From an uncultured Clostridia bacterium (GTDB lineage: Bacteria > Bacillota > Clostridia > Christensenellales > UBA1242): 64,000 nucleotides of DNA. How positions within the stretch are numbered: the stretch's first letter is position 1; each line of letters opens with the position of its first letter. Shown one piece after another: positions 8,740-64,000 of the stretch. The stretch is taken from positions 73,178 through 137,177 of the forward strand of contig CALWRJ010000010.1 of the NCBI GenBank assembly GCA_944383915.1, in the 5' to 3' direction. The notes beneath the pieces were generated by a model, which worked only from the letters and a program-made list of their open reading frames with translations, was not told where the DNA came from and did no database searches. Made by a program: the position numbers and the translations under genes.

Positions 8740-9222
8740 ATGAAATGTAAGTTTTGTGGCTGTCAAGATAGTAAAGTGATAGATAGCCGTACTAATGAAG
8801 ATTGTACAATTGTACGCCGTAGGCGTGAATGTGTAAAGTGTGGTAGGCGTTTTACAACTTTTGAGGAATATGAAACTATACCAGTGCTTGTGGTAAAGGC
8901 AAATGGCGACCGCCAGCCTTTTGACCGTGAAAAAGTAAAGCGTGGTATAATAAAGGCTTGTGAAAAGCGACCTGTAACTTTTTCTCAAATAGAGGAGATG
9001 GTTTCTAATATAGAAAAATCAATTTATAATGCATTAGAGCCCGAGGTTAACAGCAGTAAAATTGGCGAACTTGTAATGGACGAGATTAAAAAAGTTGATG
9101 AAGTTGCCTATATTCGTTTTGCTTCTGTGTATAGACAGTTTAAAGATGTGAGCAACTTTATTGATTTGTTGAATGATTTTAAAAAGGATATGGAAAAAGA
9201 TAAAGCAAAAGCGACTGAGTAA
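8740..9222 (+). CDS. nrdR: transcriptional repressor NrdR
   Basis: MKCKFCGCQDSKVIDSR...RRRRECVKCGRRFTTFE zinc ribbon plus ATP-cone. RBS AAAAGGGA. Confidence 0.93.
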   Translation: MKCKFCGCQDSKVIDSRTNEDCTIVRRRRECVKCGRRFTTFEEYETIPVLVVKANGDRQPFDREKVKRGIIKACEKRPVTFSQIEEMVSNIEKSIYNALEPEVNSSKIGELVMDEIKKVDEVAYIRFASVYRQFKDVSNFIDLLNDFKKDMEKDKAKATE

Positions 9223-23666: not shown

Positions 23667-23945
23667 TAGAGTTGGGCAATAGTAAATAGTACGATAATCT
23701 GAGCGCAAAGCGAGTAAGTTACTTTGTGTGTTAAAATCAAAGATATATTTTTAAAAAAGTCGGTTTTTCGTATTATTTTAAATATTACTATTGATACCAA
23801 AATACAGTCGTTTATAACACATAGTCATAAAATTTTGCGGTATAGTTGCTATTTTTAGCGAGTATATTGCAAATTTACTAGATTTAGTATATTTTTAAAA
23901 AGTTTGTTTAATATAAAGTTAGAGGCAAACTAGTAGGAGAGAAAA

Positions 23946-31926: not shown

Positions 31927-31961
31927 TGCATAATACCTATGCATAATACCGTGCATAGTAC
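31927..31961. repeat. 35-bp element with three direct TGCATARTAC repeats
   Basis: tgcataatacc-tatgcataatacc-gtgcatagtac. A near-identical copy lies at 40693-40727. Confidence 0.8.
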
Positions 31962-33917: not shown

Positions 33918-34053
33918 AACTTTTCACCGAAATAATTATATCACTTTTTAATATCTATTTCAAGAGTAAAGGACAAATTTGGTTTTAAGAGATTTTGGTA
34001 TGAAAGTCTGTTGCTATATTGTGTTTTTTAAATCTTAAAAAATAGTTATGCTT

Positions 34054-34223
34054 GTAATAAGAGATAGGGCATATGTAATAAGAGATAGGGCGTGTGCAAG
34101 AAAAGATAGAGTATTTGTATAATAAGAGATAGTATTTGTAATAAAGAGATAGAGTATTTGTAATAAGAGATAGAGCATCTGTAATAGGAGACAGGGCATT
34201 TGTTAATGAGAGATGGGGCGCGT
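34054..34223. repeat. tandem array, 8 x ~21 bp (consensus GTAATAAGAGATAGRGCATNT)
   Basis: Units read directly at 34054, 34075, 34096, 34117, 34138, 34160, 34181 and 34202. Edge units are more diverged. Confidence 0.85.
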
Positions 34224-34291
34224 GTAATTAAATAAAAAATATGTAATTATGTAGATAAGAGTTGAATTAATAAATTTTTTATCATAATAAA

Positions 34292-40692: not shown

Positions 40693-40727
40693 CGCATAAT
40701 ACTATGCATAATACCTATGCATAGTAC
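40693..40727. repeat. second copy of the 35-bp triple TGCATARTAC element
   Basis: cgcataatac-tatgcataatacc-tatgcatagtac, about 180-215 bp upstream of the U32 peptidase start. Confidence 0.8.
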
Positions 40728-41420: not shown

Positions 41421-41672
41421 AATAAACTCCTATGGTTTGTTGTTGATTGAATTATATCATAAGATAATCAATTTTGCAATAGCGAATATAAAATTAGATG
41501 ATTTTTATTTTTCGATAAAAAACGAAAGTAAGGATAGATTATTAATTGCATTGCTCTTTTAAAATTTTTAATTTAACTAATTTTTTTATTTTAAATTATT
41601 GACAAACATTATAAAAAGTACTATACTAAATAAGTATCTACAAAAAGGTACTATCTTTATTATACATTATAT

Positions 41673-41706
41673 GCGCCATTAGCTTTAGTTGATAGAGCGT
41701 TGGTCT
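41673..41706 (+). pseudogene. 5'-half copy of tRNA-Arg (acceptor 5' strand, D arm, 5' anticodon stem)
   Basis: gcgccattagctttagttgatagagcgttggtct matches nt 1-34 of the intact tRNA at 41877 except in the D loop. No matching 3' half follows. Confidence 0.6.
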
Positions 41707-41876
41707 AAGACAAGCAAGGAGATGATCGAACCGCTTGCGGATTCGAAAATCGGGCTTGCGCAGTCGCCTTGGTAATATGAATCTTTTGCGAAGCAAAGGT
41801 GCGTAGCATCCATATTACCAAGACAGGAACCTTTGGTTCCGTACAAGTTTATTTTTTACAACTGAATAGTATTTAT

Positions 41877-41953
41877 GCGCCATTAGCTCAATTGGATAGA
41901 GCGTTGGTCTACGGAACCAAAGGTTGGGGATTCGAGCTCCTCATGGCGCACCA
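41877..41953 (+). tRNA. tRNA-Arg (anticodon ACG), CCA encoded
   Basis: Cloverleaf folded by hand: GCGCCAT/ATGGCGC acceptor, GCTC/GAGC D stem, TTGGT-CTACGGA-ACCAA anticodon arm, GGGGA-TTCGAGC-TCCTC T arm. Confidence 0.9.
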
Positions 41954-43128: not shown

Positions 43129-43255
43129 TTTAAATTAATTTTCAGCATATTTTAATATTTTAGGAAATTTTTAGCCATTTTTCTATATATTAAGTTTTTC
43201 AAAAATTTATAAATAAATATTAGGGCTATTGATATTATTAAAAGATTAGAAAAGT

Positions 43256-43317
43256 TTAAGGAGTTATTACTTAAAATATTATAACTAGGTATTCCAGCCA
43301 TAATTCAAAATTCAAAA
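43256..43317. repeat. left arm of a 62-bp perfect inverted repeat (mosaic-element copy, minus orientation)
   Basis: ttaaggagttattacttaaaatattataactaggtattccagccataattcaaaattcaaaa is the exact reverse complement of 45938-45999. Confidence 0.85.
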
Positions 43318-43456
43318 ACCTAATTCAAAACTAAGCAAAGCCGAACAGCAAAGCGTAAAGTTCATAGCGTAAGAAAGGCTTTGTTTTTTTATTTTTTCAG
43401 TGCAAACACTTGCTTAATATTACTCATTTTTTGTATAATAGATTAGAGGTTGTGTT

Positions 43457-45052: not shown

Positions 45053-45682
45053 ATGCAAAATGATTTATACGAAATTTTATCTAAAAAAGATGTTTTTTTA
45101 ATGGATTTTGACGGTACAATAGCGGACACCGAACCGCTAAATTTCCTTACTTTAAAAACTCTACTTAAACGCGATGGGCTCGAATTTACAGACGAGCATT
45201 TTCGCCAAATGGTAGGGAAAAGTGCTTTTGAATATTTAGACCTTATAAATAAAATTTTCGGTACTCATTACACAACCGAAAATGAAGGAAAGTTGTATAT
45301 CGATACTTTTAAGGAAATTGCGCATACTCACGCGCTTCCTGTTTTTAAGTATATTGGTGAATTGCTACAAACTTTCCCTAATAAACGCAAAATTATATTA
45401 TCTAATCAGTCTGATTCTGTTATTAGAGATATTTTGTCCAATTGTGGTATTGTAGATGAATTTGAAAACATTGTTTCGTGTTTTGTAAAGCAAATTAAAA
45501 AGCAAGATTATTATCTTAATACGAAAGAATTTTTAAATGCCGAGCCTGATAAAATTGTTCTTTTTGAGGACTCGCAACGCTACATTGACAATGGCAAAAG
45601 CGCAGGCTTTACTACAATCGGCGTAACAAATATTTATAACGGCGGAAAATTGAAGGCAGATTTAATTATTGAGGGACAATAA
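45053..45682 (+). CDS. HAD-superfamily hydrolase (subfamily IA, phosphatase/beta-phosphoglucomutase-like)
   Basis: DFDGTIADTE motif I. ~210 aa with a cap domain. Confidence 0.85.
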   Translation: MQNDLYEILSKKDVFLMDFDGTIADTEPLNFLTLKTLLKRDGLEFTDEHFRQMVGKSAFEYLDLINKIFGTHYTTENEGKLYIDTFKEIAHTHALPVFKYIGELLQTFPNKRKIILSNQSDSVIRDILSNCGIVDEFENIVSCFVKQIKKQDYYLNTKEFLNAEPDKIVLFEDSQRYIDNGKSAGFTTIGVTNIYNGGKLKADLIIEGQ

Positions 45683-45690
45683 AATTAATA

Positions 45691-46306
45691 AATTAGCAAT
45701 TAGCAATGAGCAATTAGCAGTTGTTGTGCGCGTGCGCGCAAGCCTTTACGCTTCGCCGTTCGGCTACGCGTAAATTAGGAATTAAAAATTAAATTAATTT
45801 TTATCATATTATGCAAAAATTTTTGCAAGTAGCAAAATCTTTTTGCAAGATAAAATTCCGCTACGCGCGGTGCGGCGGGGGTAGAGCCCCCGCTGGCTCA
45901 TTACGCCTTCGGCGAGTACTTTATCGCTATGCTCAAATTTTGAATTTTGAATTATGGCTGGAATACCTAGTTATAATATTTTAAGTAATAACTCCTTAAC
46001 TGCTAATTGCTAATTGCTAATTCTCGCAAAGCGAGTAAGACTGCTAATTGCTAATTGCTAATTCTCGCAAAGCGAGTAAGACTGCTAATTGCTAATTGCC
46101 TTTACGCTTCGCCGTTCGGCTTCGCTTAATTTTGAATTTTGAATTTTGAATTTTGAATTAAGGCTGGAATTATTTAAATATAATATAATTTTATACTCAG
46201 CAATAACTGCTAATTGCTAATTGCTAATTGCTAATTTGCGCTACGCGCATAGGCTTGCGCGCACGCGCCCCGTAATTCCTAATTACTAATTCCTAATTTC
46301 TAATTA
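45691..46306. repeat. mosaic repeat island B (heptamer arrays, triloop hairpins, GC-rich modules, AT-rich cores)
   Basis: Read directly. (AATTAGC)4 at 45691; GC module at 45721-45770; 16-bp palindrome tgcaaaaatttttgca at 45812; three-hairpin module at 45855-45935; (GAATTTT)n at 45936 and 46128; (GCTAATT)n at 46000, 46043, 46084 and 46208; 41-bp tandem units at 46023 and 46064; (TAATTNC)5 at 46273. Confidence 0.9.
45938..45999. repeat. right arm of the 62-bp perfect inverted repeat
   Basis: Exact reverse complement of 43256-43317. Confidence 0.85.
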
Positions 46307-46330
46307 ATTTTTAGTGATAACTTTTTTATT

Positions 46331-47065
46331 TTAATCGTTGTTGCGGAGAATTAGTATAGTTGTGATAAAACGGACAAGGGTAAGTATACTTATCAAAAGC
46401 GAAGCGACATAAGTCATTGCTGCGGCGGTGAGCATTGATTTCGCTTGCTTTATTTCGTCATCGGTGGTGATATAACCGCCTTCTTTTAATTGCCTCATTG
46501 CGCGTTTTGATGCGTCAATTTCGGTAGGCAAGGTTACAAGACTAAAAAGCATTGCTAGTCCAAAAAATGCAATTCCCGCGTACATAACAATATTTCCAAA
46601 AAGCGAATTCCAGCCTGCGAAAATATTTATAAGTAGCCCTATTATTACTAATGGCCATAAGATTTTGTCGCTAAAATTGATTACTGGCACTAAAAAAGTA
46701 CGAATTTTTGATGCAAGATTACCTTCTTTTCGTTGAATGGCGTGTCCAACTTCGTGCGCGGCTATACTAAGAGATGCAATAGTATTTTGTCCATAAACAC
46801 CTTGGCTTAGCGAAATTGTATCTTTGCTTGGGTTGTAGTTGTCCGTCATTTCGCCTGGAATTGATACAATATTTATCTCATAAAGGTCGTTTTTGTCTAA
46901 AATTTCGCGTGCGACTTGGTCACCTGTCTTATCGGTGCTAGATGGTTTTATGCCTTTTGTGCGTTTGTACGCGCTAGAAACTTTTGCTTGCGCCCAAATG
47001 GCTAAAATAATACCTGGCACCATAATAATACCTAATAGCCAATATAAAATATAAAAATCTAACAT
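46331..47065 (-). CDS. putative neutral zinc metallopeptidase (Zn_peptidase_2 / PF04298-like membrane protein)
   Basis: HEVGHAIQ zinc motif, TM helices at both ends. GGAGA RBS. Confidence 0.85.
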   Translation of the reverse strand: MLDFYILYWLLGIIMVPGIILAIWAQAKVSSAYKRTKGIKPSSTDKTGDQVAREILDKNDLYEINIVSIPGEMTDNYNPSKDTISLSQGVYGQNTIASLSIAAHEVGHAIQRKEGNLASKIRTFLVPVINFSDKILWPLVIIGLLINIFAGWNSLFGNIVMYAGIAFFGLAMLFSLVTLPTEIDASKRAMRQLKEGGYITTDDEIKQAKSMLTAAAMTYVASLLISILTLVRFITTILILRNND

Positions 47066-47241
47066 ATTTCTCCTAAAATAGTTTTTATCATTATACTATA
47101 AAATTAAGATAAAATCAAATGTTTAGCGCTCACTCTTTTATTAATTAAAATAATAACATTATTATAAACAAAATTGTGTGAATTTTGTGTAGTTTTATCT
47201 ACATTTCCACTTTTTTGTGGAAAACTTTGAGCGCAAATATT

Positions 47242-48204
47242 TTATGCGTAATCGATGTTTGTTATACGGTTTTCGCGAATGTCAAAGTGGTAAGTTTTGG
47301 TAAAACGCGGATTGCCGTTATATACGAGTGTTAGGTTATATGGTGTTTGTTCTAAACATTGTCGCACCTCGATAAAGTCGCCGAAATATGCGCGCAAATG
47401 CTCGTTTTTTAGGCTTGTGCTAAGGCTCGGGTGAAGGTATGTCCGCGCAAGTGAGTAATTTTCGATATTCAAGGCTTCCATAAAGGCTTGCGGAATTGCT
47501 TGCGGGCAGGCGGGCGAAATTGGTTCATTTTGAGTGAATACGGAATATTGATTATCCTTTATAAATGCTCCGTTTTTTTGTTGGTAAACGCTAACTATAC
47601 CGTGCCGTGCAATATCTTGTAAATTTTTTAGCGTAACAATTTTTGTGCCGTCAAACTCGATTTTGTCGGCGGTGTATTCAAATGCCACTTGTAAATTTTT
47701 ATTAAGTAACAATAAATAACTTTGTTCGTTTGCTAGTTTGCCTAAAATTTGGATAAAATCGTAATTTTTTGTGGCTTTTACATCAAATAAATCATTATTT
47801 AGCGGGTACGACAAATTGAGTTTGCCATTGCTGATATTTAGCATATGCTTATTGATTGTAATAATTGTGTCATCGAGAGTTGTATAAAAAGGTGCGGTAT
47901 TTTGTGCGGTGTTTGGAAGGGTTAGTGACGATGTCGAAACAATAAAGTTTCGCGCGCCGTAGTCGATAATTGCAATATTTGAATGGTCGCAAAGAAGTTT
48001 GTTGGCGCTAATATTAAGTTTTGCGGAAAACGGAATTGAAATTTCGTCTAACGAGTTTGAAAGGGGATAACATGACAAAATAAAGTCCTCGTCTATTTCA
48101 ATTGATAAGTAGTCGTTAGGGCTTTCAACAAAACCGATTTGATGATTGTTTATACAGTACATAGTTTTATCATTACTTGTGATATGCACAAAAATTTGTT
48201 CCAA
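47242..48204 (-). CDS. hypothetical protein (320 aa)
   Basis: TTG start with GAGG 8 nt upstream. No domain recognised. Confidence 0.5.
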   Translation of the reverse strand: MEQIFVHITSNDKTMYCINNHQIGFVESPNDYLSIEIDEDFILSCYPLSNSLDEISIPFSAKLNISANKLLCDHSNIAIIDYGARNFIVSTSSLTLPNTAQNTAPFYTTLDDTIITINKHMLNISNGKLNLSYPLNNDLFDVKATKNYDFIQILGKLANEQSYLLLLNKNLQVAFEYTADKIEFDGTKIVTLKNLQDIARHGIVSVYQQKNGAFIKDNQYSVFTQNEPISPACPQAIPQAFMEALNIENYSLARTYLHPSLSTSLKNEHLRAYFGDFIEVRQCLEQTPYNLTLVYNGNPRFTKTYHFDIRENRITNIDYA

Positions 48205-48308
48205 AATATAAACCTCGAAAGTGTATTTATTATAAAATATGCTTTTTAAAGTCTAAAATATAATTTTTTGGTTAATAATTGCCTTGATAATTTATTTAGG
48301 GGTGAATT

Positions 48309-49373
48309 ATGAAAGACTTTTCTATAATGGGTTGGAGCGAATTGGAGATTAAAAGATTGTTAAGTTTTGTGCTAAACAGGGGAGATAAAAGTTTATTATC
48401 CGTTTTTGATGATTTTGCAAGTAAAACGGGAAGGCGTCCGTATAGCGTGCGTAATTTTTATTATAAATTAATAAATCTTGCAGAGAAAAATAGCGAAGTG
48501 GCAAAGGCGGTTAATTTTAATAAAATTTCTAACAATATGAAAAATAATCATTTTTCACAAAACGACACTAAAAGTTTATTACGCACACTATTAAATAATG
48601 ACAAAAATATTAGTGTTAGACGCGCGTGCTTAAATCTAGCGAATGGTGACGCTAAACTTATGATTAGGTATCAAAATAAATATCGCAATATTTTAAAAAC
48701 TAATATAAAACTTGTTAACGAAGTGGCAAACGAGTTAAGACAAAATGGTGTGCGCGTGCGAAAATATGATAAATTTGGCAATAATTTAGTAAAATTTGAT
48801 AAAAATTATGGAAATTTCAATGATTTTGCACAAAATTCAACAAAATTTAGCGAAAATTATCAAAAAAATAATAAAATAGCAAAAAATACAGCAAAAATTA
48901 ATGAAAATTATTTAAAAAATGAGATTTTTAATCAAAAATCGGCAAAATTTAATGAAAAAACATTAAATTTTGATAAATTTAACCAAAATATAGCAGTTAT
49001 GCCTACGCAAAATGATAAACTTACGGAAAACGATATGCAGGCGCTTTTTTTAGGGCTAGTGCGTTTGGTGAAGCGGAGTGCCGAACACGAAGTAGCGCAA
49101 AATTTAAAAAGGGAAGCCGAATTTGCTAACTCCGCGCTTCAAAATTCTCTTATTGATTTAAGGCGTAAAGAAGTGTTGATAGCCGAACTTAAAGAGCAGA
49201 ACGAAAAATTAAAAATAAAACTCGATAAATTAGAGAAAAATTTCCAAAAAAATCAAGAAAAAATGGTTGGCAACATCTCGACAATTTCTGTTTTGTTAGG
49301 TAACTCTAAAATAGACGAACTAAAAAATTTTGTTGAGAAATTAAGTTTAAAAGAAAGGGGAGAGTTTGATTAG
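48309..49373 (+). CDS. hypothetical protein with SANT/Myb-like N-terminus, N/K/F-rich repeat region and C-terminal coiled coil
   Basis: AGGGGTGA RBS. WSELEIKRLLSFV...RRPYSVRNFYYKL. Central NF-x-KF-N degenerate repeats. Confidence 0.5.
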   Translation: MKDFSIMGWSELEIKRLLSFVLNRGDKSLLSVFDDFASKTGRRPYSVRNFYYKLINLAEKNSEVAKAVNFNKISNNMKNNHFSQNDTKSLLRTLLNNDKNISVRRACLNLANGDAKLMIRYQNKYRNILKTNIKLVNEVANELRQNGVRVRKYDKFGNNLVKFDKNYGNFNDFAQNSTKFSENYQKNNKIAKNTAKINENYLKNEIFNQKSAKFNEKTLNFDKFNQNIAVMPTQNDKLTENDMQALFLGLVRLVKRSAEHEVAQNLKREAEFANSALQNSLIDLRRKEVLIAELKEQNEKLKIKLDKLEKNFQKNQEKMVGNISTISVLLGNSKIDELKNFVEKLSLKERGEFD

Positions 49374-49374
49374 T

Positions 49375-49909
49375 TTGCATAGCACTATGCTTTAGTGCTA
49401 TGCAAAAATTAGCAATTAGCAATTAGCAATTAGCAGTTAAGGAGTTATTTCTTAAAATATTTATAATCTAATAAATTTCAGCCTTGATTCAAAATTACAA
49501 GAAAAATACGAGTTTTTATATGCATAGTACCTAAAATTTGTGGTTTTATGCATTATTTTTAGTGCATAGTACTATAAAATTTTGAACTTGTGTTCAAAAT
49601 TTAATTAGCAATTAGCAGTCTTACTTGCTACGCAAGAATTAGCAATTAGCAATTAGCAGTCTTACTTGCTACGCAAGAATTAGCAATTAGCAATTAGCAG
49701 TTATTGTGCGCGTGCGCGCAAGCCTATGCGCTTCGCTTAATTTTTGCCTTGGAGTATGCAATGCACACGGAAAGCCAGCCAATAGTTAGAGTAATTGTTA
49801 AAGTGAGTGGCTCACGGCTGAATTTTGAATTTTGAATTACGGAGTTATTTCCAAAAGTCATCTTATATTTAGAAATACCTTCCTTAACTGCTAATTGCTA
49901 ATTGCTAAT
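49375..49909. repeat. mosaic repeat island C
   Basis: 11-bp-stem palindrome ttgcatagcac/gtgctatgcaa at 49375; (AATTAGC)n; TGCATAGTAC motifs at 49520 and 49562; palindrome aaattttgaac/gttcaaaattt; two 41-bp tandem units with CTTGC-TAC-GCAAG hairpins at 49623 and 49664; GC module at 49703; (GAATTTT)n at 49820; (GCTAATT)3 at 49888. Confidence 0.9.
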
Positions 49910-49974
49910 TTGTAAAAGGTTGCTTTAATTTTTATTTTATGCTAAAATTGAATAAAAATTACAAAGGATAAAGT

Positions 49975-56809: not shown

Positions 56810-56873
56810 TATCGATATTTTATATAATTATCAAGCAAAGATAGACAAATTTTTGTAAAAATGGGAGTTTATT

Positions 56874-59800
56874 ATGTTTTCAACATTAGGTGCTGATGCA
56901 GTAAATGCAATTGTTAACTTTATAGGAGACCTCTTAGGAAGTTTAACTTTTGACCAATTATTTTATATTTTTGTCGGTATTATTGCTGGCATTATCTTAA
57001 TTAGCGGTATTCGTCTTATTTGGTGTTATGAAAACCGCGCTATTAGGGCGATGCGAAGCGTCAACAAGTATTTAAAGAACAATCCAAAAGTTACCGATGA
57101 TAATTTAGTTGAGTTCCATAGTAAGATGAAACAACTTCCGCGCCGTATGCGTGACCGTTGGCAACTTTTTATGCTTGAGCGCGAAGGGAGTCCTAGTAGG
57201 TATATGACTGTTGAATACTGTGTTAAGCGTCCCTTATATAACAGTGCAGTTTTGATGAGCCAAAAACAAGTTTGGTATTTATCTATAATTTTGGCAATTT
57301 TAGGCTTTATTTTTGGGCTTTCAAACATTTCAATTAATGGACTAGGGGCTGACCTTGCGGGGATTTTACTTAACTCATTTGTTATCCCTGCCATTGTGCT
57401 AATTTTAGGTAGTATCTATGTAATGATTTTGCAAATTAGATACAACGCAATCAACCACGACTTTTACGATATGTTTACAAACTTTGTCCGCAATATCGAC
57501 AAAGCCACAAACACGATGCCAGATTATGTAGACTACGAACTCCTATTTACCAAAAAAGAAATCAACAAAGGTATTCCTGTTTTGCGTGAGTACCTAGAAA
57601 AGCGCGCTATGGAGGAGCAAAGACTTCTTGAAAAAGCAAAAAGGGAAGAGGTTAACCACAGCCCGTACGACTTTTCAAGTCTTGGCGTAAACGGTGCGCA
57701 ACTTATTGAACGCGCGGTAAACGAGAGTGAGCAATTCTTGACGCACAAAATTCAACTTCAAAATGAAATTAATGACCTCGAAAAGCAAGTGCAAAAGTCT
57801 GATGCCAATATGGAGGACATCGAGCGCGAGGCAAACAAGAAATTGCAGGCAATTAAGGAAAACCTCGAAAGACTTGATAAGGCTATGAACGAAACTACAA
57901 ACCGTGTAGAAATTAGTTATAACCGCCGTCAAGCATCTGCCGAGATGGACAAAAAACTAATGCTAGAAAAAGACCTCGAGAATATGTTAAACAAGGAAAA
58001 AGTTGCGCAAGATGCCCTAAAAGTTGAGATTCAAAAGCGCAAAGAGGAAATCGAGGAAAACAAAAAAGAAGTCGAGGAAGCGCTCAAATCGGAGTACGAT
58101 ACTTTTGCTACCAAAGTTTATGACGAGTTAAACGAGAAAATTACGCGCGATAACTCGGAGCAGTTGCACGAAATGGAAATGACTATCGCGCGCTTAAAGG
58201 CGAAGGTAAAAGAGTTTACTCGCGATATCGAAAAGAAAGATTCTCTAATTGAGGCGCGAAACCTTGAACTTGACAATATGCGCCAGCAAGTTAGCAAGCA
58301 AAAAGGAAAATCGAAGTCCAAAAAAGACTTTGGGCAAGATTATATAAAGGCGCAAGACAATGTGCCAGAAGGGACTATTAATGCGGTGCAAGTCGACTAC
58401 AACGACACCGTTCCGCAAGAAAATCAAGTGGCTGAAATTCAAAATGCTGAAAACTATGCGCAACCTAACGAGCAGTACGATTCTAGCATTTATCAGCCGA
58501 CTGAACCGCAGTACGATGTGCCACCACAAGACAATCAGCCCGACTATGCAGGGTATGACCAATATAATCAGCCTTATGACAATTCGCAATACAACGGCGA
58601 GTACACAGAAGGCGCTCCATATAATTATGACGGGCAACAATATGCGGAAAATGGCGAGCCGTATAATTACGAAATGCCACAGGGTGACGCTCAACCTGTT
58701 GAAAATGGTGAGCAAAATGGTGAAAATGGCGATTTAAATAGCGGACAGGGCGAGTTGCAACCTGAAAATGCGCAAAACTTTGACAATCAAAACGCAAATT
58801 ACGATGCGCAAAACTATGATGTAAATGGCTATTACGACCAAAACAATGTTGATTATAACAATCAATATGGACAGCCTTACCAAGACGCGCAAAATTATTA
58901 CGCACCGACTGACCAAACTGGAGAGCAGGGCGGAATTTATATGCCCGAGGACACAACCGATTTCAGCGTTGCGGAAAATCAAGCAAATGACGGACAACAG
59001 TACGCAGAAAATGGCGAAAATGCGCCTGTGGAAAATGTTGCGTCACAAGAAAATATCGAAGGTGTGCCTGCTGATAATGTTGCGCCACAAAATGTTGGTG
59101 ACGCAAACGGCGAGCAACCTGTTGAATTAACTCCTGAAAGCGCTCAACAACAAGCGGGAAGTGATGAACTTGTCGTAAGTGACGAAAATGTTAGCCTAGA
59201 CAATTCGGCTAACGCAAATACTGACACTGTAAATCTCGACAGCGACACCATTTCTCTTGACGAAGCGCCCGTTTCATTGGACGAGCAATCACCTGTTTCT
59301 CTTGATGAAAAGGCAAATAAAGAAAACGAGAGCGAAACAATTTCGCTTGACGAAAGCGCTACTGAACCTAAAAATGAAGCAAAAGAGAGCGAGCAAGCCG
59401 AAGTTAGTCTTGACGAAAAGAAAGACAGTGACGAGATAAAACCAGCAAAGAAAACGACTGCTAAAAAGTTTACTGACGGTAAGTCTAAATCTAGCGACAC
59501 TGAAAGCGAGAAAAAAGACGAGAAAGCAGACAAAGACGAGAAGGGAAGCGTTAAGGACGACAAAGCCGAAAAAGACGATTCTTTAAACGATGACGACAAA
59601 GGCAAAAAGGCAGATAAGGATGCCGACAAGCAAGAGCCAAAAGAGAGTAAGAAAAAATATGTAGAAAATGACGATTTGGAGGCTTTGCAGAAAAAGATTG
59701 AGGAGGAAAACGCTAGATTAAAGAAACAGCAAGAGGAGTTGCGCGCTCAAATTGATAAGACTTTGGCAACTATGGAAAAAGCCGAAAACGCGACTAAAGC

Positions 59801-59966
59801 CGAACGCACTCGTAATATTAAGAAAATTAAAGAAATGATTGCAAAACTTAAAGAGGAGGCGGAAACAGCAAAGGCGCGCGGAGCAAGCAAGACTCAAATT
59901 AATAAAATTAATAAGTCCGCTGCCGAACTTTTGAAAGTCCTAGCAGACTATCAATCTAAAAAATAG
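56874..59966 (+). CDS. large membrane-anchored coiled-coil protein with Q/N/Y/D-rich and (V/I)SLDE-repeat low-complexity regions
   Basis: GGGAG RBS. 4-5 N-terminal TM helices, ~300-aa coiled coil, prion-like Q/N/Y segment, seven [VI]-[SN]-L-D repeats, K/D/E tail. Confidence 0.6.
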   Translation: MFSTLGADAVNAIVNFIGDLLGSLTFDQLFYIFVGIIAGIILISGIRLIWCYENRAIRAMRSVNKYLKNNPKVTDDNLVEFHSKMKQLPRRMRDRWQLFMLEREGSPSRYMTVEYCVKRPLYNSAVLMSQKQVWYLSIILAILGFIFGLSNISINGLGADLAGILLNSFVIPAIVLILGSIYVMILQIRYNAINHDFYDMFTNFVRNIDKATNTMPDYVDYELLFTKKEINKGIPVLREYLEKRAMEEQRLLEKAKREEVNHSPYDFSSLGVNGAQLIERAVNESEQFLTHKIQLQNEINDLEKQVQKSDANMEDIEREANKKLQAIKENLERLDKAMNETTNRVEISYNRRQASAEMDKKLMLEKDLENMLNKEKVAQDALKVEIQKRKEEIEENKKEVEEALKSEYDTFATKVYDELNEKITRDNSEQLHEMEMTIARLKAKVKEFTRDIEKKDSLIEARNLELDNMRQQVSKQKGKSKSKKDFGQDYIKAQDNVPEGTINAVQVDYNDTVPQENQVAEIQNAENYAQPNEQYDSSIYQPTEPQYDVPPQDNQPDYAGYDQYNQPYDNSQYNGEYTEGAPYNYDGQQYAENGEPYNYEMPQGDAQPVENGEQNGENGDLNSGQGELQPENAQNFDNQNANYDAQNYDVNGYYDQNNVDYNNQYGQPYQDAQNYYAPTDQTGEQGGIYMPEDTTDFSVAENQANDGQQYAENGENAPVENVASQENIEGVPADNVAPQNVGDANGEQPVELTPESAQQQAGSDELVVSDENVSLDNSANANTDTVNLDSDTISLDEAPVSLDEQSPVSLDEKANKENESETISLDESATEPKNEAKESEQAEVSLDEKKDSDEIKPAKKTTAKKFTDGKSKSSDTESEKKDEKADKDEKGSVKDDKAEKDDSLNDDDKGKKADKDADKQEPKESKKKYVENDDLEALQKKIEEENARLKKQQEELRAQIDKTLATMEKAENATKAERTRNIKKIKEMIAKLKEEAETAKARGASKTQINKINKSAAELLKVLADYQSKK

Positions 59967-60021
59967 TCGCTAAAGTTAGTTAAATAAACTTAAAAAAGTA
60001 ACTTATTAATAGCGAAAAATA

Positions 60022-60057
60022 AAAGAACTTATCTAAATGTGGATAAGTTCTTTTTTT
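60022..60057 (+). terminator. rho-independent terminator
   Basis: agaacttatc / gataagttct stem plus T7. Confidence 0.7.
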
Positions 60058-60128
60058 GATTGATGTAAAATTAGTCAAATAAAAACTGTTTTGCTTTTTA
60101 AATAATTTCCCCGTGTCGCTTTTCGTGT

Positions 60129-60446
60129 TTAGAGTAGGGTGTCTAAATCGGCTCTGTATTTTTTTAAATCAACGCGCCCGCGCCAAATTTCGACTCCCTC
60201 GGCTAATAATTTTTTAGCCTGCATATTTGAGCCACCAAACGCATAGTTTGGCGCAAGACGACCAGCACTATTTACGACCCTATGACACGGAATATTTATA
60301 GGGTCTGTGTTTGAGTGTAGCGCGTTTCCAACCGCACGCGCACCGCCATTCACTCCAACCGCGCGCGCAATGTCGCCATATGTCGAAACTTTGCCTTTTG
60401 GTATTTTTGCCACCACTTTAAAAACTCGTTCTCTAAAATTTTCCAT
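60129..60446 (-). CDS. MGMT-family protein (methylated-DNA-protein-cysteine methyltransferase DNA-binding domain only)
   Basis: IPKGKVSTYGDIA...IPCHRVV with the PCHR active-site motif. ATG at 60446 preferred over the listed TTG at 60461. No clear RBS for either. Confidence 0.8.
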   Translation of the reverse strand: MENFRERVFKVVAKIPKGKVSTYGDIARAVGVNGGARAVGNALHSNTDPINIPCHRVVNSAGRLAPNYAFGGSNMQAKKLLAEGVEIWRGRVDLKKYRADLDTLL

Positions 60447-60466
60447 AGTAAGAGTATACAATAAAA

Positions 60467-61082
60467 ATTAGGAATTAGCAAGCAACTCGCTATGCGAGAA
60501 TTAGCAATTAGCAGGTAGCAATTAGCAGTCTTACTCGCTACGCTCAAATTAGCAATTAGCAATCTTACTTGCTTCGCAAGAATTAGCAATGAGCAATTAG
60601 CAATTAGCAGTTGTTGTGCGCGTGCGCGCAAGCATATGTGCGTAGCGCAATTTTGAATTTTGAATTTTGAATTATTGCAGGAATATCTAATAATTTTTTG
60701 CTCTTTTTAAACCATTTGCAAATTTTAGAACATTTGTTCGTTGGTACAAATAAAGTATTAACTTATAAATTAAGCACATTAAAACCTATGTTAATTAATA
60801 AATTAATTATAGTACTATGAGAGTTTTACTCTCATGATATTTCCTTGATTTTTAGTGGTAGTACTTTTAATTGTTGTTTGTTATAAAGCTATGAGAGTTT
60901 TACTCTCATCGCTATAAGTTAAATTAGGAATTAGTAATTAGGAATTTTGGTCGCTGACGCTCGAATTTTGAATTTTGAATTAGGAATTATGGCTAGAAAA
61001 TATTTAAAAATATTTTTAAATGCTTGCGCGCACGCGCACAACAACTGCTAATTGCTAATTGCTAATTCGCAACGAAGTTGCG
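60467..61082. repeat. mosaic repeat island D, left part
   Basis: Hairpins CTCGC-TAT-GCGAG (60486), CTTGC-TTC-GCAAG (60568) and CGCAAC-GAA-GTTGCG (61068). Also (AATTAGC)n arrays, GC module at 60611-60648, (GAATTTT)n at 60650 and 60964, two copies of ctatgagagttttactctcat at 60816 and 60889, and (GCTAATT)3 at 61046. Confidence 0.9.
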
Positions 61083-61110
61083 GAAAGCGCAGCCGAAAGG
61101 CGAAGCGTAA

Positions 61111-61209
61111 AAAAACAACCTAAAAACAACCGAAATTCAACCGAAAAACAACCTAAAAACAACCCAAATTCAACCCAAAAACAACCCAAAAACAACCCAA
61201 AAACAACCA
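61111..61209. repeat. tandem array, 9 x 11 nt (AAAWWCAACCN)
   Basis: Units counted base by base: aaaaacaacct, aaaaacaaccg, aaattcaaccg, and so on. Confidence 0.9.
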
Positions 61210-61463
61210 ATTGAAAATGAAATCGTGATCGTAAACGGAAATTCCGAACGATAAAAAAAATAAAAACTTTCTCTCTTTCTATGGCTTGTTGGGTGGCGAT
61301 AAAATGCTAATCTAATATTTATAATAATTTTAAATTTTAGTGGTGATAAAAACTTGTTAAAACAGTTTTAATGGATTTCATTTATATCACTTTTTAGAAA
61401 TATAATTCTAAATTTTTCGTCTATGAATGAATGGCTTTAATATAATCTAAATCACTTACAAAA

Positions 61464-61595
61464 AACCAAGAAAATAACCAAGAATAAAACCAGCAACATA
61501 ACCAGAGAAACAACCAGAGAAACAACCAAGAAAACAACCAGAGAAACAACCAAGAAAACAACCAGAAAAACAACCAGAGAAACAACCAGAAAAAC
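61464..61595. repeat. tandem array, 11 x 12 nt (AACCAGAGAAAC-like)
   Basis: Units counted base by base. Followed by a GGAAA-rich run and a ~60-bp tail shared with the 61111 array. Confidence 0.9.
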
Positions 61596-61740
61596 AACCA
61601 AAGGAAAAGGGAAACGGAAAGGAAAACGGAAACGGAAATTCCGAACGATAAATAAATAAAAACTTTCTCTCTTTCTATGCTTTGCGGTGGGGGAGAATAA
61701 AAAATCTTGTACAACAACATAATTATTACTCGCTACGCTC

Positions 61741-61855
61741 GAATTTTGAATTTTGAATTAGGAATTAAGGCTGAAATTATTAAATATAATATAATTTTAT
61801 ACTCATCCTTAACTGCTAATTGCTACCTGCTAATTGCTAATTCTCGCAAAGCGAG
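61741..61855. repeat. mosaic element copy (GAATTTT array - AAGGCTGAAAT core - GCTAATT array - CTCGC-AAA-GCGAG hairpin)
   Basis: The core aaggctgaaattattaaatataatataattttatactca is nearly identical to 46161-46199. Confidence 0.85.
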
Positions 61856-61874
61856 CAAACCGAATGGCTCAGCG

Positions 61875-63827: not shown

Positions 63828-64000
63828 TTCCCGCTACGCGAAAACATTTAAGCAAAGTAAACAAATTTTATTAATTTCAGCCACAATTCCTAATTTCTAA
63901 TTTCTAATTCCTAATTATCTTTGCACTCCGTGCAGGGCGGGGATAGAGCCCCCGCTGGCTCGATAGCGCGCAAGCGCGCGTACTTTATCGCTGGCGCTCA
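63828..64000. repeat. mosaic repeat island E (runs off the window)
   Basis: attcccgctacgcg at 63828, (TAATTNC)4 at 63886-63916, and a three-hairpin GC module at 63921-64000 homologous to 45855-45935. Confidence 0.85.

Follow-up and report, generated by a model that had tools for sequence, protein, structure and literature searches.

Several spacers between genes in a 64,000-nt stretch of DNA from an uncultured Clostridia bacterium (contig CALWRJ010000010.1, positions 73,178 to 137,177; hereafter, the window) are built from short modules that recur in different orders. We call these stretches islands, and the one at the center of this study is i45 (45683-46330). Our best reading is that the islands are non-coding mosaic repeats that are specific to one genus-level clade of uncultured Clostridia. 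They are a real and previously undescribed family that combines mosaics like bacterial interspersed mosaic elements (BIMEs) or BOX elements with heptamer arrays like the short tandemly repeated repetitive (STRR) sequences of cyanobacteria. What we observed is the anatomy of the islands, the fact that they were gained when syntenic relatives are compared, copies at separate loci that are nearly identical, inverted boundaries, and a concentration of strain differences within them. The family is known from one 21-kb neighborhood and from its counterpart in one relative.

The basic unit of the family is about 110-140 nt long and consists of a small GC hairpin, an array (GAATTTT)n, an AT-rich core, an array (GCTAATT)n, and a second small GC hairpin. 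We aligned nine copies (alignment A1: 45916-46040, 46098-46255, 49790-49930, 60940-61085, 61718-61862, and 60625-60740, and, on the minus strand, 43236-43375, 49385-49520, and 63840-63935), and their core reads GAATTAWGGCTGRAAT, an AT-rich stretch, TCCTTAAC, and then (TGCTAATT)n. Each AATTTTG array is preceded by a small GC hairpin or by a motif of the CGCTAYGCTC type. Some segments are identical at different loci: 43256-43317 is the reverse complement of 45938-45999, with 100% identity over 62 nt, and the 16-nt core of module P1 is the same in 5 of 5 copies (45728-45743, 49708-49723, and 60618-60633 on the plus strand, 46253-46268 and 61022-61037 on the minus strand). The initial annotation of this DNA, which was made from the sequence alone, had matched the core at 46161-46199 to 61768-61807, and this match holds up, with 76% identity over 110 nt between 46138-46247 and 61744-61853.

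Extra modules (P1, P2, and P3) and a 41-nt tandem unit are combined with the basic unit so that inverted AATTAGN arrays bound each island. The 41-nt unit of i45 has a counterpart in the opposite orientation at 49603-49701, with 2.4 copies and the stem CTTGC/GCAAG, and there is a 34-nt version at 60516-60597. (We rejected the idea that the 41-nt units are a CRISPR array: each unit consists of heptamers and a hairpin, all of the units are the same, and nothing unique separates them.) The hairpins of the islands are short, with 4-7 bp stems and loops of 3-6 nt (mostly triloops), or 11-19 nt in all. In an alignment of 12 hairpins, there are two-sided changes in 4 of the 5 stem pairs, for example CTCGC/GCGAG versus CTTGC/GCAAG. 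The covariation score was 0.273, versus 0.168 in shuffles, and 5 of 500 shuffles matched it, which gives modest support to the idea that the potential for pairing is maintained.

On its plus strand, i45 begins with (AATTAGC)4, P1, P2, degenerate heptamers, 108 nt of unique sequence, P3, (AATTTTG)2.6, and a core. It continues with 2.5 units of (GCTAATT)3 plus hairpin plus TAAGACT, then P2, (AATTTTG)4.6, another core, (GCTAATT)4.7, a hairpin, P1 reversed, and (TAATTMC)5. Its outer arms, 45687-45756 and 46240-46309, show 79% complementarity along 70 nt. The order in i60 is heptamer/hairpin units, P1, about 384 nt of inner sequence with two copies of the core, P1 reversed, and (GCTAATT)3; here the arms (array plus P1, 60588-60635 and 61020-61067) lie 384 nt apart and show 98% complementarity along 48 nt. 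Island i49 contains a hairpin with a 14-bp stem, (AATTAGC)4.7, a reversed core, an ancestral segment with TGCATA boxes, the 41-nt tandem, P1, (GAATTTT)2.9, a core, and (GCTAATT)3.7. Island i61 runs from a hairpin through (GAATTTT)2.7, a core (nearest to the 46160-46207 copy), and (GCTAATT)4.7 to another hairpin, and i63 holds the remnant of a reversed core, (AATTCCT/AATTTCT)4.6, and the second copy of the three-hairpin module P3. We also noticed that the inner part of i60 contains an identical hairpin with an 8-bp stem, ATGAGAGT-TTT-ACTCTCAT, at 60814-60836 and 60888-60910, 74 nt apart; the first copy is followed by a T-rich tail and is terminator-like.

To obtain expected counts, we used dinucleotide-preserving shuffles of the window. 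There are 30 AATTAGC dimers (with at most one mismatch) versus 0.13 expected, 12 GAATTTT dimers versus 0.70, and 13 AATTAGR dimers versus 0.46, while GCGCGTGCGCGCAAGC occurs five times versus 0 in the shuffles. The heptamer dimers are thus at 17-230 times the shuffle expectation. All of them are intergenic, and they and the GCGCGTGCGCGCAAGC matches are confined to 43.2-64 kb of the window. Tandem Repeats Finder reports arrays of period 7 with 2.1-4.9 copies and three types of unit (AATTAGC, AATTTTG, and AATTAGG/A/T) in i45 and at 43.3, 49.4-49.9, 60.5-61.1, 61.7-61.9, and 63.9 kb. The first 43 kb has 28 intergenic regions that measure 60 bp or more, and none of them holds a heptamer dimer; nor does a further 4.2 kb to the left of the window, which we recovered from another sample's contig.

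All of the islands and modules listed in the initial annotation were found where it placed them, as was a degenerate hairpin fragment at 23699-23718. Its central proposal, a modular and multi-copy intergenic family in both orientations, is borne out: the modules recur in both orientations, and between genes only. Some of its more sweeping statements need to be narrowed. It described i45 as composed entirely of reusable modules: 485 of the 648 nt (75%) do match other islands, but 45766-45873 and 45900-45923 do not. It placed islands at every operon boundary in the right third of the window, which is incorrect, as 47066-47241, 48205-48308, 56810-56873, and 59967-60128 have no modules. And it took the islands for the only sharply GC-rich stretches, but of the 13 segments that reach 80% GC over 20 nt, 10 sit within genes; the islands are the GC-richest DNA among intergenic regions only.

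Could the islands be an artefact of assembly or scaffolding? Two ENA metagenome contigs that come from other samples, L111 and L110, also encode the Zn peptidase whose gene lies beside i45. L111 is identical to the window at 9,027 of 9,028 positions (99.99%), spanning i45 and i49, and has the same heptamer copy numbers. L110 matches the window at 100%, apart from its 41-nt tandem, which is interrupted by a scaffold gap of 100 N. (This gap looked at first like a copy-number polymorphism, which we rejected, as there is a run of 100 N instead of sequence.) The end of a third contig, L265, falls within the island that lies upstream of prmC. The breaks and N gaps of other samples' contigs within islands might be expected from an artefact, and one single-nucleotide polymorphism (SNP) has the sequence of the other P3 copy, which could be read cross-mapping. 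But i45 and i49 are reproduced nucleotide for nucleotide in two independent assemblies from different studies, so the islands are real, and we find an artefact hardly credible. All four differences between the window and the other samples fall within islands, and islands make up about 15% of the roughly 10.2 kb that was compared. One of these SNPs alters a heptamer unit. Another difference converts the first copy of P3 to the sequence of the second copy, which points to exchange between copies, or possibly to read cross-mapping.

By its proteins, the host is an uncultured lineage of gut Clostridia, with 35% GC. The best named homologues of its RF1 and its Zn peptidase are from "MAG: Clostridia bacterium." The RF1 of Candidatus Borkfalkia has about 59% identity to that of the host; we found no records of the exact product for RF1 or for the 220-aa response regulator. 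The gene order addA-addB-x-x-Zn peptidase-HAD is kept in L267-L270 (74-75% identity of the Zn peptidase) and in L266 (91%). The spacer between the Zn-peptidase and HAD genes is 29, 200, or 74 bp in these relatives, versus 648 bp in the window, and it holds an ordinary bidirectional terminator and no heptamer arrays. Similarly, the spacer upstream of addB is 296-340 bp in the relatives and 601 bp in the window. In an alignment of this spacer (A2), the relatives have conserved TGCATA boxes, and the (AATTAGC)4.7-plus-core block of the window falls exactly between these boxes; the junction of the block abuts an ancestral CAAAATT. Where i45 adjoins the Zn-peptidase gene, one can recognize by eye the left arm of the terminator that the relatives have; the island begins at its AAAATT loop, and the right arm is gone. 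In the sample available, these comparisons show the islands to be gains or expansions within older and more compact spacers.

One relative that is closer has an island of its own. In this relative (L112 and L113), whose RF1 is 87% identical, there is a related but different island between rpmE and prmC, with (AATTAGC)4, a P1-like TGTGCGCTAGCGCGCAAGC, and inverted TAATTCC-like units, and there is an AATTAGG array upstream of rpmE. The modules of the window match these only in the heptamers and the P1-like hairpin. In relatives whose RF1 is 79% or 75% identical, rpmE and prmC are 48-69 bp apart, and there are no heptamer arrays in 20 kb. This pattern implies that the family is confined to a narrow clade, in the sample available. 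Using BLAST, we compared the non-heptamer modules (P1, P2, P3, S, the cores, and island-specific stretches) to 150+ metagenome, viral, and relative loci and obtained only two chance matches of 17-24 nt. Similarly, the GC palindrome GTGCGCGTGCGCGCAAGC gave only chance matches in GC-rich genomes when compared to genome contigs, and none of these were with heptamers.

The TGCATA boxes (TACTATGCATAGTACT-type palindromes, often in tandem) are distinct from the heptamer islands. They occur at 31927-31961, 40694-40727, 49374-49403, and 49520-49575, and also upstream of addB in L267 and L269. The boxes upstream of addB are conserved in relatives at only about 75% protein identity, and they look like operator sites of some regulator.

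Table 1. Islands, modules, heptamer arrays, and the genes that flank i45, in positions of the window
Feature	Position	Strand	Remarks
HAD-family hydrolase gene	45053-45682	+	
Island i45	45683-46330	.	occupies the complete convergent spacer between the HAD hydrolase and Zn-peptidase genes
Zn-metallopeptidase (Zn-peptidase) gene	46331-47065	-	
Solo core element	43236-43375	-	reverse orientation; also holds (AAAATTC)2.3 and a divergent copy of P2
Island i49	49374-49910	.	between the 354-aa gene and addB
Island i60	60462-61110	.	upstream of ogt
Island i61	61718-61874	+	directly downstream of prfA
Island i63	63828-64000	.	upstream of prmC; truncated by the end of the window
Complete core element	45936-46022	+	(GAATTTT)n, GAATTATGGCTGGAAT, AT-rich stretch, TCCTTAAC, (TGCTAATT)n
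Array (AATTAGC)4.1	45691-45719	+	
Further AATTAGC arrays	49407-49439, 49603-49617, 49637-49658, 49678-49703, 60499-60527, 60547-60563, 60581-60609	+	
Array (GCTAATT)4.7	46204-46236	-	AATTAGC unit on the opposite strand
Further GCTAATT arrays	45997-46022, 46042-46063, 46083-46099, 49885-49910, 61046-61067, 61810-61842		
Array (AATTTTG)4.6	46128-46159	+	
Further AATTTTG arrays	45936-45953, 49819-49838, 60649-60673, 60963-60981, 61741-61759; 43302-43317		43302-43317 is reversed
Array of AATTAGG/AATTAGT/AATTAGA, x4.9	46273-46306	-	
Further AATTAGG/T/A arrays	63885-63916 (-), 60922-60946 (+), 45772-45793 (+)		45772-45793 is degenerate
P1 module	45724-45744	+	TTGTGCGCGTGCGCGCAAGCC
P2 module	46100-46125	+	CTTTACGCTTCGCCGTTCGGCTTCGC; run of mini-hairpins
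Other P2 copies	45744-45769 (+), 43341-43368 (-)		three substitutions in 43341-43368
P3 three-hairpin GC module	45858-45935	+	second copy at 63920-64000 (+)
41-nt tandem unit	45999-46099	+	(GCTAATT)3 + CTCGCAAAGCGAG + TAAGACT; 2.5 perfect copies

We think that there is about an even chance that the islands are a lineage-specific mosaic repeat, resembling BIMEs or miniature inverted-repeat transposable elements (MITEs), that nucleates at spacers containing AAAATT, grows by slippage, and is copied or homogenized among nearby intergenic regions. How the islands spread, what they target, and whether they are neutral are matters that we infer. They would be seeded at AT-rich intergenic sites that already hold AAAATT, would then lengthen as the heptamers and the 41-nt unit multiply by strand slippage, and would be copied or homogenized between nearby spacers by recombination, by gene conversion, or by some mobilizing enzyme. 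They would be tolerated because they lie outside of promoters and coding DNA. In appearance they resemble selfish or structural DNA that evolves quickly, and not a gene or a structured RNA. Under this explanation the islands would be mainly selfish or neutral DNA, and any putative effects of the hairpins or of the all-frame stops on the flanking transcripts would be secondary. We propose recent copying because two loci share the 62-nt segment without any difference, the P1 core occurs unchanged in five places, and the nine cores align, and we propose fast turnover because all four strain differences lie within islands. A test for inverted arms found terminal inverted repeats whose arms are a heptamer array plus P1 (in i60 and i45). 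Also, by eye, (C)AAAATT is at two junctions, namely those of the A2 block and of the Zn-peptidase side of i45.

Several observations weigh against this explanation. Because i45 has lost about 50 nt of the ancestral spacer next to the HAD gene, it did not arise by a simple insertion. The initial annotation had suggested a MITE-like family, which fits with the relatives' short and island-free spacers at the same sites, as an expanding element would also do; at the junctions, we found no clean target-site duplication. There was no transposase or recombinase (including Y1) among the 13 window proteins that were scanned against Pfam, with the other open reading frames (ORFs) of the window left unscanned. 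We saw no presence/absence polymorphism within the species, as L110 and L111 carry the same islands. All of the islands that we saw lie within 21 kb and there are none in the adjacent 47 kb, a distribution that genome-wide transposition explains less well than local spread or in-situ growth does. Identical heptamer arrays occur in many unrelated phyla, so such arrays can arise by slippage without any element. Finally, the UUCG and GCAA tetraloops and the G-U wobbles on one strand only of P1 and P3 hint at selection at the RNA level.

Selection on RNA is at the heart of the main rival, which we consider unlikely: that the islands are selected 3'-end elements that would form 3' untranslated regions, in which (AAUUAGN)n would provide stops in all frames and the GC hairpins would block 3'-5' exonucleases or aid termination, in the manner of the repetitive extragenic palindromes and BIMEs of enterobacteria. 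The 3' ends of genes that abut islands and can be read (the HAD, Zn-peptidase, 354-aa, and prfA genes) all have AAUUAGN and then GC hairpins (4 of 4), and between the HAD and Zn-peptidase genes the island replaces the ordinary terminator of the relatives. By eye, the P1 stems have G-U pairs on one strand only, and the loop of the third hairpin of P3 is cUUCGg in one copy (CGCC-UUCG-GCG) and cGCAAg in the other (GCGC-GCAA-GCGC). The AATTAGC arrays in metagenomes are within 10 nt of the stop codon of an ORF 39 times on the sense strand versus 17 times on the antisense strand; stop codons within the arrays make this count approximate. Of 156 arrays, only 6 are within long open frames. The plus strand of 45676-46000 also folds better than shuffles (z = -4.6). 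On the other hand, the strand that is sense for the Zn peptidase folds no better than shuffles (z = -1.1), and an island that is symmetrical and inverted would in any case read AAUUAGN at each of its ends. The nine copies of the core are not consistently oriented relative to the flanking transcription, several islands are upstream of genes, and the hairpin SNPs between strains break stems. A role in termination, as suggested by the initial annotation, is not supported for i45, as a scan of 45683-46330 found no canonical hairpin followed by a T run; in the islands scanned, only 60637-60649, followed by ATTTTGAATT, qualifies as an intrinsic terminator. Ordinary terminators are still used beside the islands, given the perfect bidirectional terminator at 60021-60054 (a 15-bp stem flanked by an A run and a T run) between the 1030-aa gene and ogt.

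The initial annotation also raised the possibility of a structured RNA. In Rfam 15, only tRNA-Arg reached the gathering threshold across the whole window, and there was no match with E ≤ 1 in 43000-64000; the modules matched no known RNA family. RNAalifold found 0 consensus pairs in the AT-rich core. Because the core has neither a consensus structure nor a consistent orientation, the term can apply only to the GC hairpins with their 4-7 bp stems. Two other ideas about the core were rejected. As a mobile promoter, it would have TTGAAT and TATAAT spaced by 19-20 nt, and a promoter scan gave 72 matches versus 61 ± 8 expected, so promoters are not enriched. As the start of a small ORF, the AAGGAG of the reversed core has, by eye, no start codon at a suitable distance.

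The other rivals concern the heptamers, which extend well beyond this genome. The AATT-phased heptamers of the initial annotation are certainly present here, but they are not peculiar to this genome, as (AATTAGC)3 is widespread: JGI/ENA metagenomes have the exact 20-mer in at least 120 contigs (26-66% GC), and IMG/VR has it in 24. The metagenome arrays are intergenic and sometimes form inverted pairs, and no metagenome contig with (AATTAGC)n has the non-heptamer modules. In some of these contigs, (AATTAGC)n is accompanied by AACAGTT-type and AACTGTC-type arrays, and we take AACAGTT to be the CAACAGT unit of the cyanobacterial STRR3. We also note that among L235, L146, L180, L145, L225, and L254, some have up to 20 perfect arrays in 10-14 kb, and that the units beside (AATTAGC)n in metagenome and viral contigs like L235 include AACAGTT, AACTGTC, AATGGCT, AACCGCT, and others; such contigs would suit a broader study of heptamer arrays. 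A link across phyla between heptamer arrays and GAGCG-N-GCGA hairpins was unsupported (2-fold enrichment only, six cases). Heptamers are the most over-represented long simple repeats in many bacteria (Mrazek 2007, as reviewed in PMC4679880; PMC4692102). According to the same sources, they are intergenic and variable among close relatives, slippage has been proposed, and a function has not been established. As of 2015, their over-representation in intergenic DNA lacked a detailed literature (PMC4692102). Given these reports and the occurrence of the arrays across phyla, the heptamer component is a known kind of feature. What is novel is that the heptamer arrays are a fixed part of a larger copied unit.

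If slippage is the proposed origin of heptamer repeats in so many bacteria (PMC4692102; PMC4679880), then each array here might have grown independently, as a microsatellite, by polymerase slippage and with no copying between loci. The occurrence of the AATTAGC heptamer in unrelated phyla and the start of the arrays at pre-existing AATT both fit. But slippage cannot account for the complex modules that loci share, that is, the 62-nt segment, the nine cores, the five P1 cores, the copies of P2 and P3, and their conserved order. We regard slippage alone as improbable: it is largely refuted for the composite units, and it is viable for changes in the length of arrays. It seems quite doubtful to us, too, that AATT every 7 bp, with three units making two helical turns, would scaffold a nucleoid-associated or site-specific DNA-binding protein, possibly with a link to the replication terminus. 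AATT is kept in all three types of heptamer, and in IMG/VR, heptamer triplets with AATT are in 24, 72, and 95 contigs, versus 1, 6, and 14 for permutations of the same composition without AATT. This enrichment is suggestive only, as it has just three controls, which are not matched for AT content. The islands lie within about 18 kb of a turn in the cumulative GC skew (at about 60-61 kb), but the turn rests on 3 kb and three genes, and the number of units in an array varies freely. We know of no candidate protein that binds AATT heptamer arrays, and we found no dif-like site: the best matches to the Xer site near the skew turn or in the core had 19-21 of 28 positions and were scattered, so we rejected them. 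As for the skew itself, its cumulative peak is at about 60000-61500; from 61 kb on, the skew is -0.11 to -0.19 and the genes turn to the minus strand, while earlier blocks of minus-strand genes have skew near zero. This may be the region of the replication terminus. A last combination, which we consider a long shot, is that AATT-phased arrays are selected across phyla after stop codons and that here they form the variable ends of a mobile mosaic element that targets AAAATT and is moved by some enzyme. If true, this would be a transposable or recombining element with microsatellite termini.

How do the islands compare to known repeats? As the initial annotation had supposed, the module sequences matched no described repeat in the papers that we searched, and the array sequences turned up only in a microsatellite of fungal mitochondria and, as a run of (AAAATTC)3, upstream of the Lyngbya gene jamI. 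The likeness to repetitive extragenic palindromes (REPs) and BIMEs is considerable in kind: the islands are extragenic mosaics of small GC palindromes in both orientations with recurrent linkers, palindrome-plus-linker units are amplified in tandem, placement at the 3' ends of genes is frequent, and stems vary in a compensatory way beside a conserved flank (TAAGAC in the islands, GTAG in REPs). However, the island hairpins are 13 nt long (4-7 bp stems and triloops), versus about 35 nt for REPs, and are flanked by TAAGAC(T) without GTAG. Also unlike REPs and BIMEs, the linkers are tandem heptamer arrays, the unit includes an AT-rich core, and the host belongs to the Clostridia. Nor was there any REP-associated tyrosine transposase (RAYT) among the 13 scanned proteins of the window.

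The known heptamer repeats include the STRR of cyanobacteria, GGGAATC in Xanthomonas, GGGGAYT in Nostoc, and TAACTGA in Beggiatoaceae. The islands share with these the intergenic arrays of period 7, with 2-5 or more units and several types in one genome. Known heptamer repeats also vary between close relatives, sometimes form inverted pairs (PMC4692102), and are often beside the ends of genes (PMC4679880). However, they are described as stand-alone arrays, whereas the islands fix the arrays within a copied unit with hairpins and a core; the heptamers of the islands are also AT-rich and AATT-phased, and the host is from a different phylum. BOX of pneumococci and STAR of Staphylococcus are similar in being short intergenic repeats, modular (A-Bn-C) or GC-rich, that have variable numbers of modules and are found in AT-rich Firmicutes. 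BOX consists of boxA-boxB(n)-boxC, of 59, 45, and 50 nt, with no heptamer arrays. Its module sizes and composition appear to be unlike those of the islands. We rejected STAR because direct repeats of the STAR motif, TNTGTTGKGGCCCM, gave one match at two mismatches, inside a gene, versus 2.0 expected. Finally, like MITEs, the islands are non-coding, shorter than 700 bp, have terminal inverted repeats and AT-rich targets, and are absent from the relatives' orthologous sites. Unlike MITEs, they end in heptamer arrays of variable length rather than in fixed terminal inverted repeats, and target duplication is uncertain. We know of no parent transposon.

The window has other features of interest. 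Just upstream of tRNA-Arg(ACG) (41877-41953), 41668-41835 has a second tRNA-like start, GCGCCATTAGCT..GATAGAGCGTTGGTCT, and continues for about 130 nt of GC-rich, hairpin-prone sequence that ends with GGAACCTTTGGTTCC. ARAGORN and Rfam call only the downstream tRNA; the upstream sequence could be a disrupted or intron-like copy of a tRNA or a tRNA-derived element. Between islands, an 11-mer (AAAAACAACCC) is repeated 9 times at 61111-61208 and a 12-mer (AAACAACCAGAG) is repeated 12 times at 61460-61601. Both tandems are followed by a shared tail of about 70 nt, GGAAATTCCGAACGATAAA...AAAACTTTCTCTCTTTCTATG, which is 78-91% identical. These may be a duplicated low-complexity end of a gene or a small gene, and an ORF on the minus strand (61421-61720) overlaps the 12-mer repeat. 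A 21-nt tandem (TTGTAATAAGAGATAGGGCAT, about 8 copies) at 34052-34232, in a 733-bp divergent spacer, is unrelated to the heptamer islands. Three proteins, of 1030 aa (56874-59966), 320 aa (47242-48204), and 354 aa (48309-49373), have no match in Pfam. The 1030-aa ORF has internal repeats of 42 nt and 31 nt near its 3' end (58627-59090), and the identity of the 320-aa protein to its counterpart in the relative with the 91% identical Zn peptidase is only 51%.

The practical significance of the islands is modest for now. They fragment short-read assemblies of this organism, as the end of one contig and the N gap of another scaffold fall within them, and they concentrate the strain-level differences that we observed (4 of 4). 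More generally, mosaic intergenic repeats such as REP/BIME, BOX, and STAR are useful as markers for strain typing, as hot spots of recombination or rearrangement, and as modulators of the fate of mRNA, and none has been described for this poorly known group of gut Clostridia. We also found no earlier example of heptamer microsatellites that are built, as fixed structural components, into a larger unit that is copied. Heptamers that are carried in a copied unit could help to explain why they are over-represented in the intergenic DNA of bacteria.

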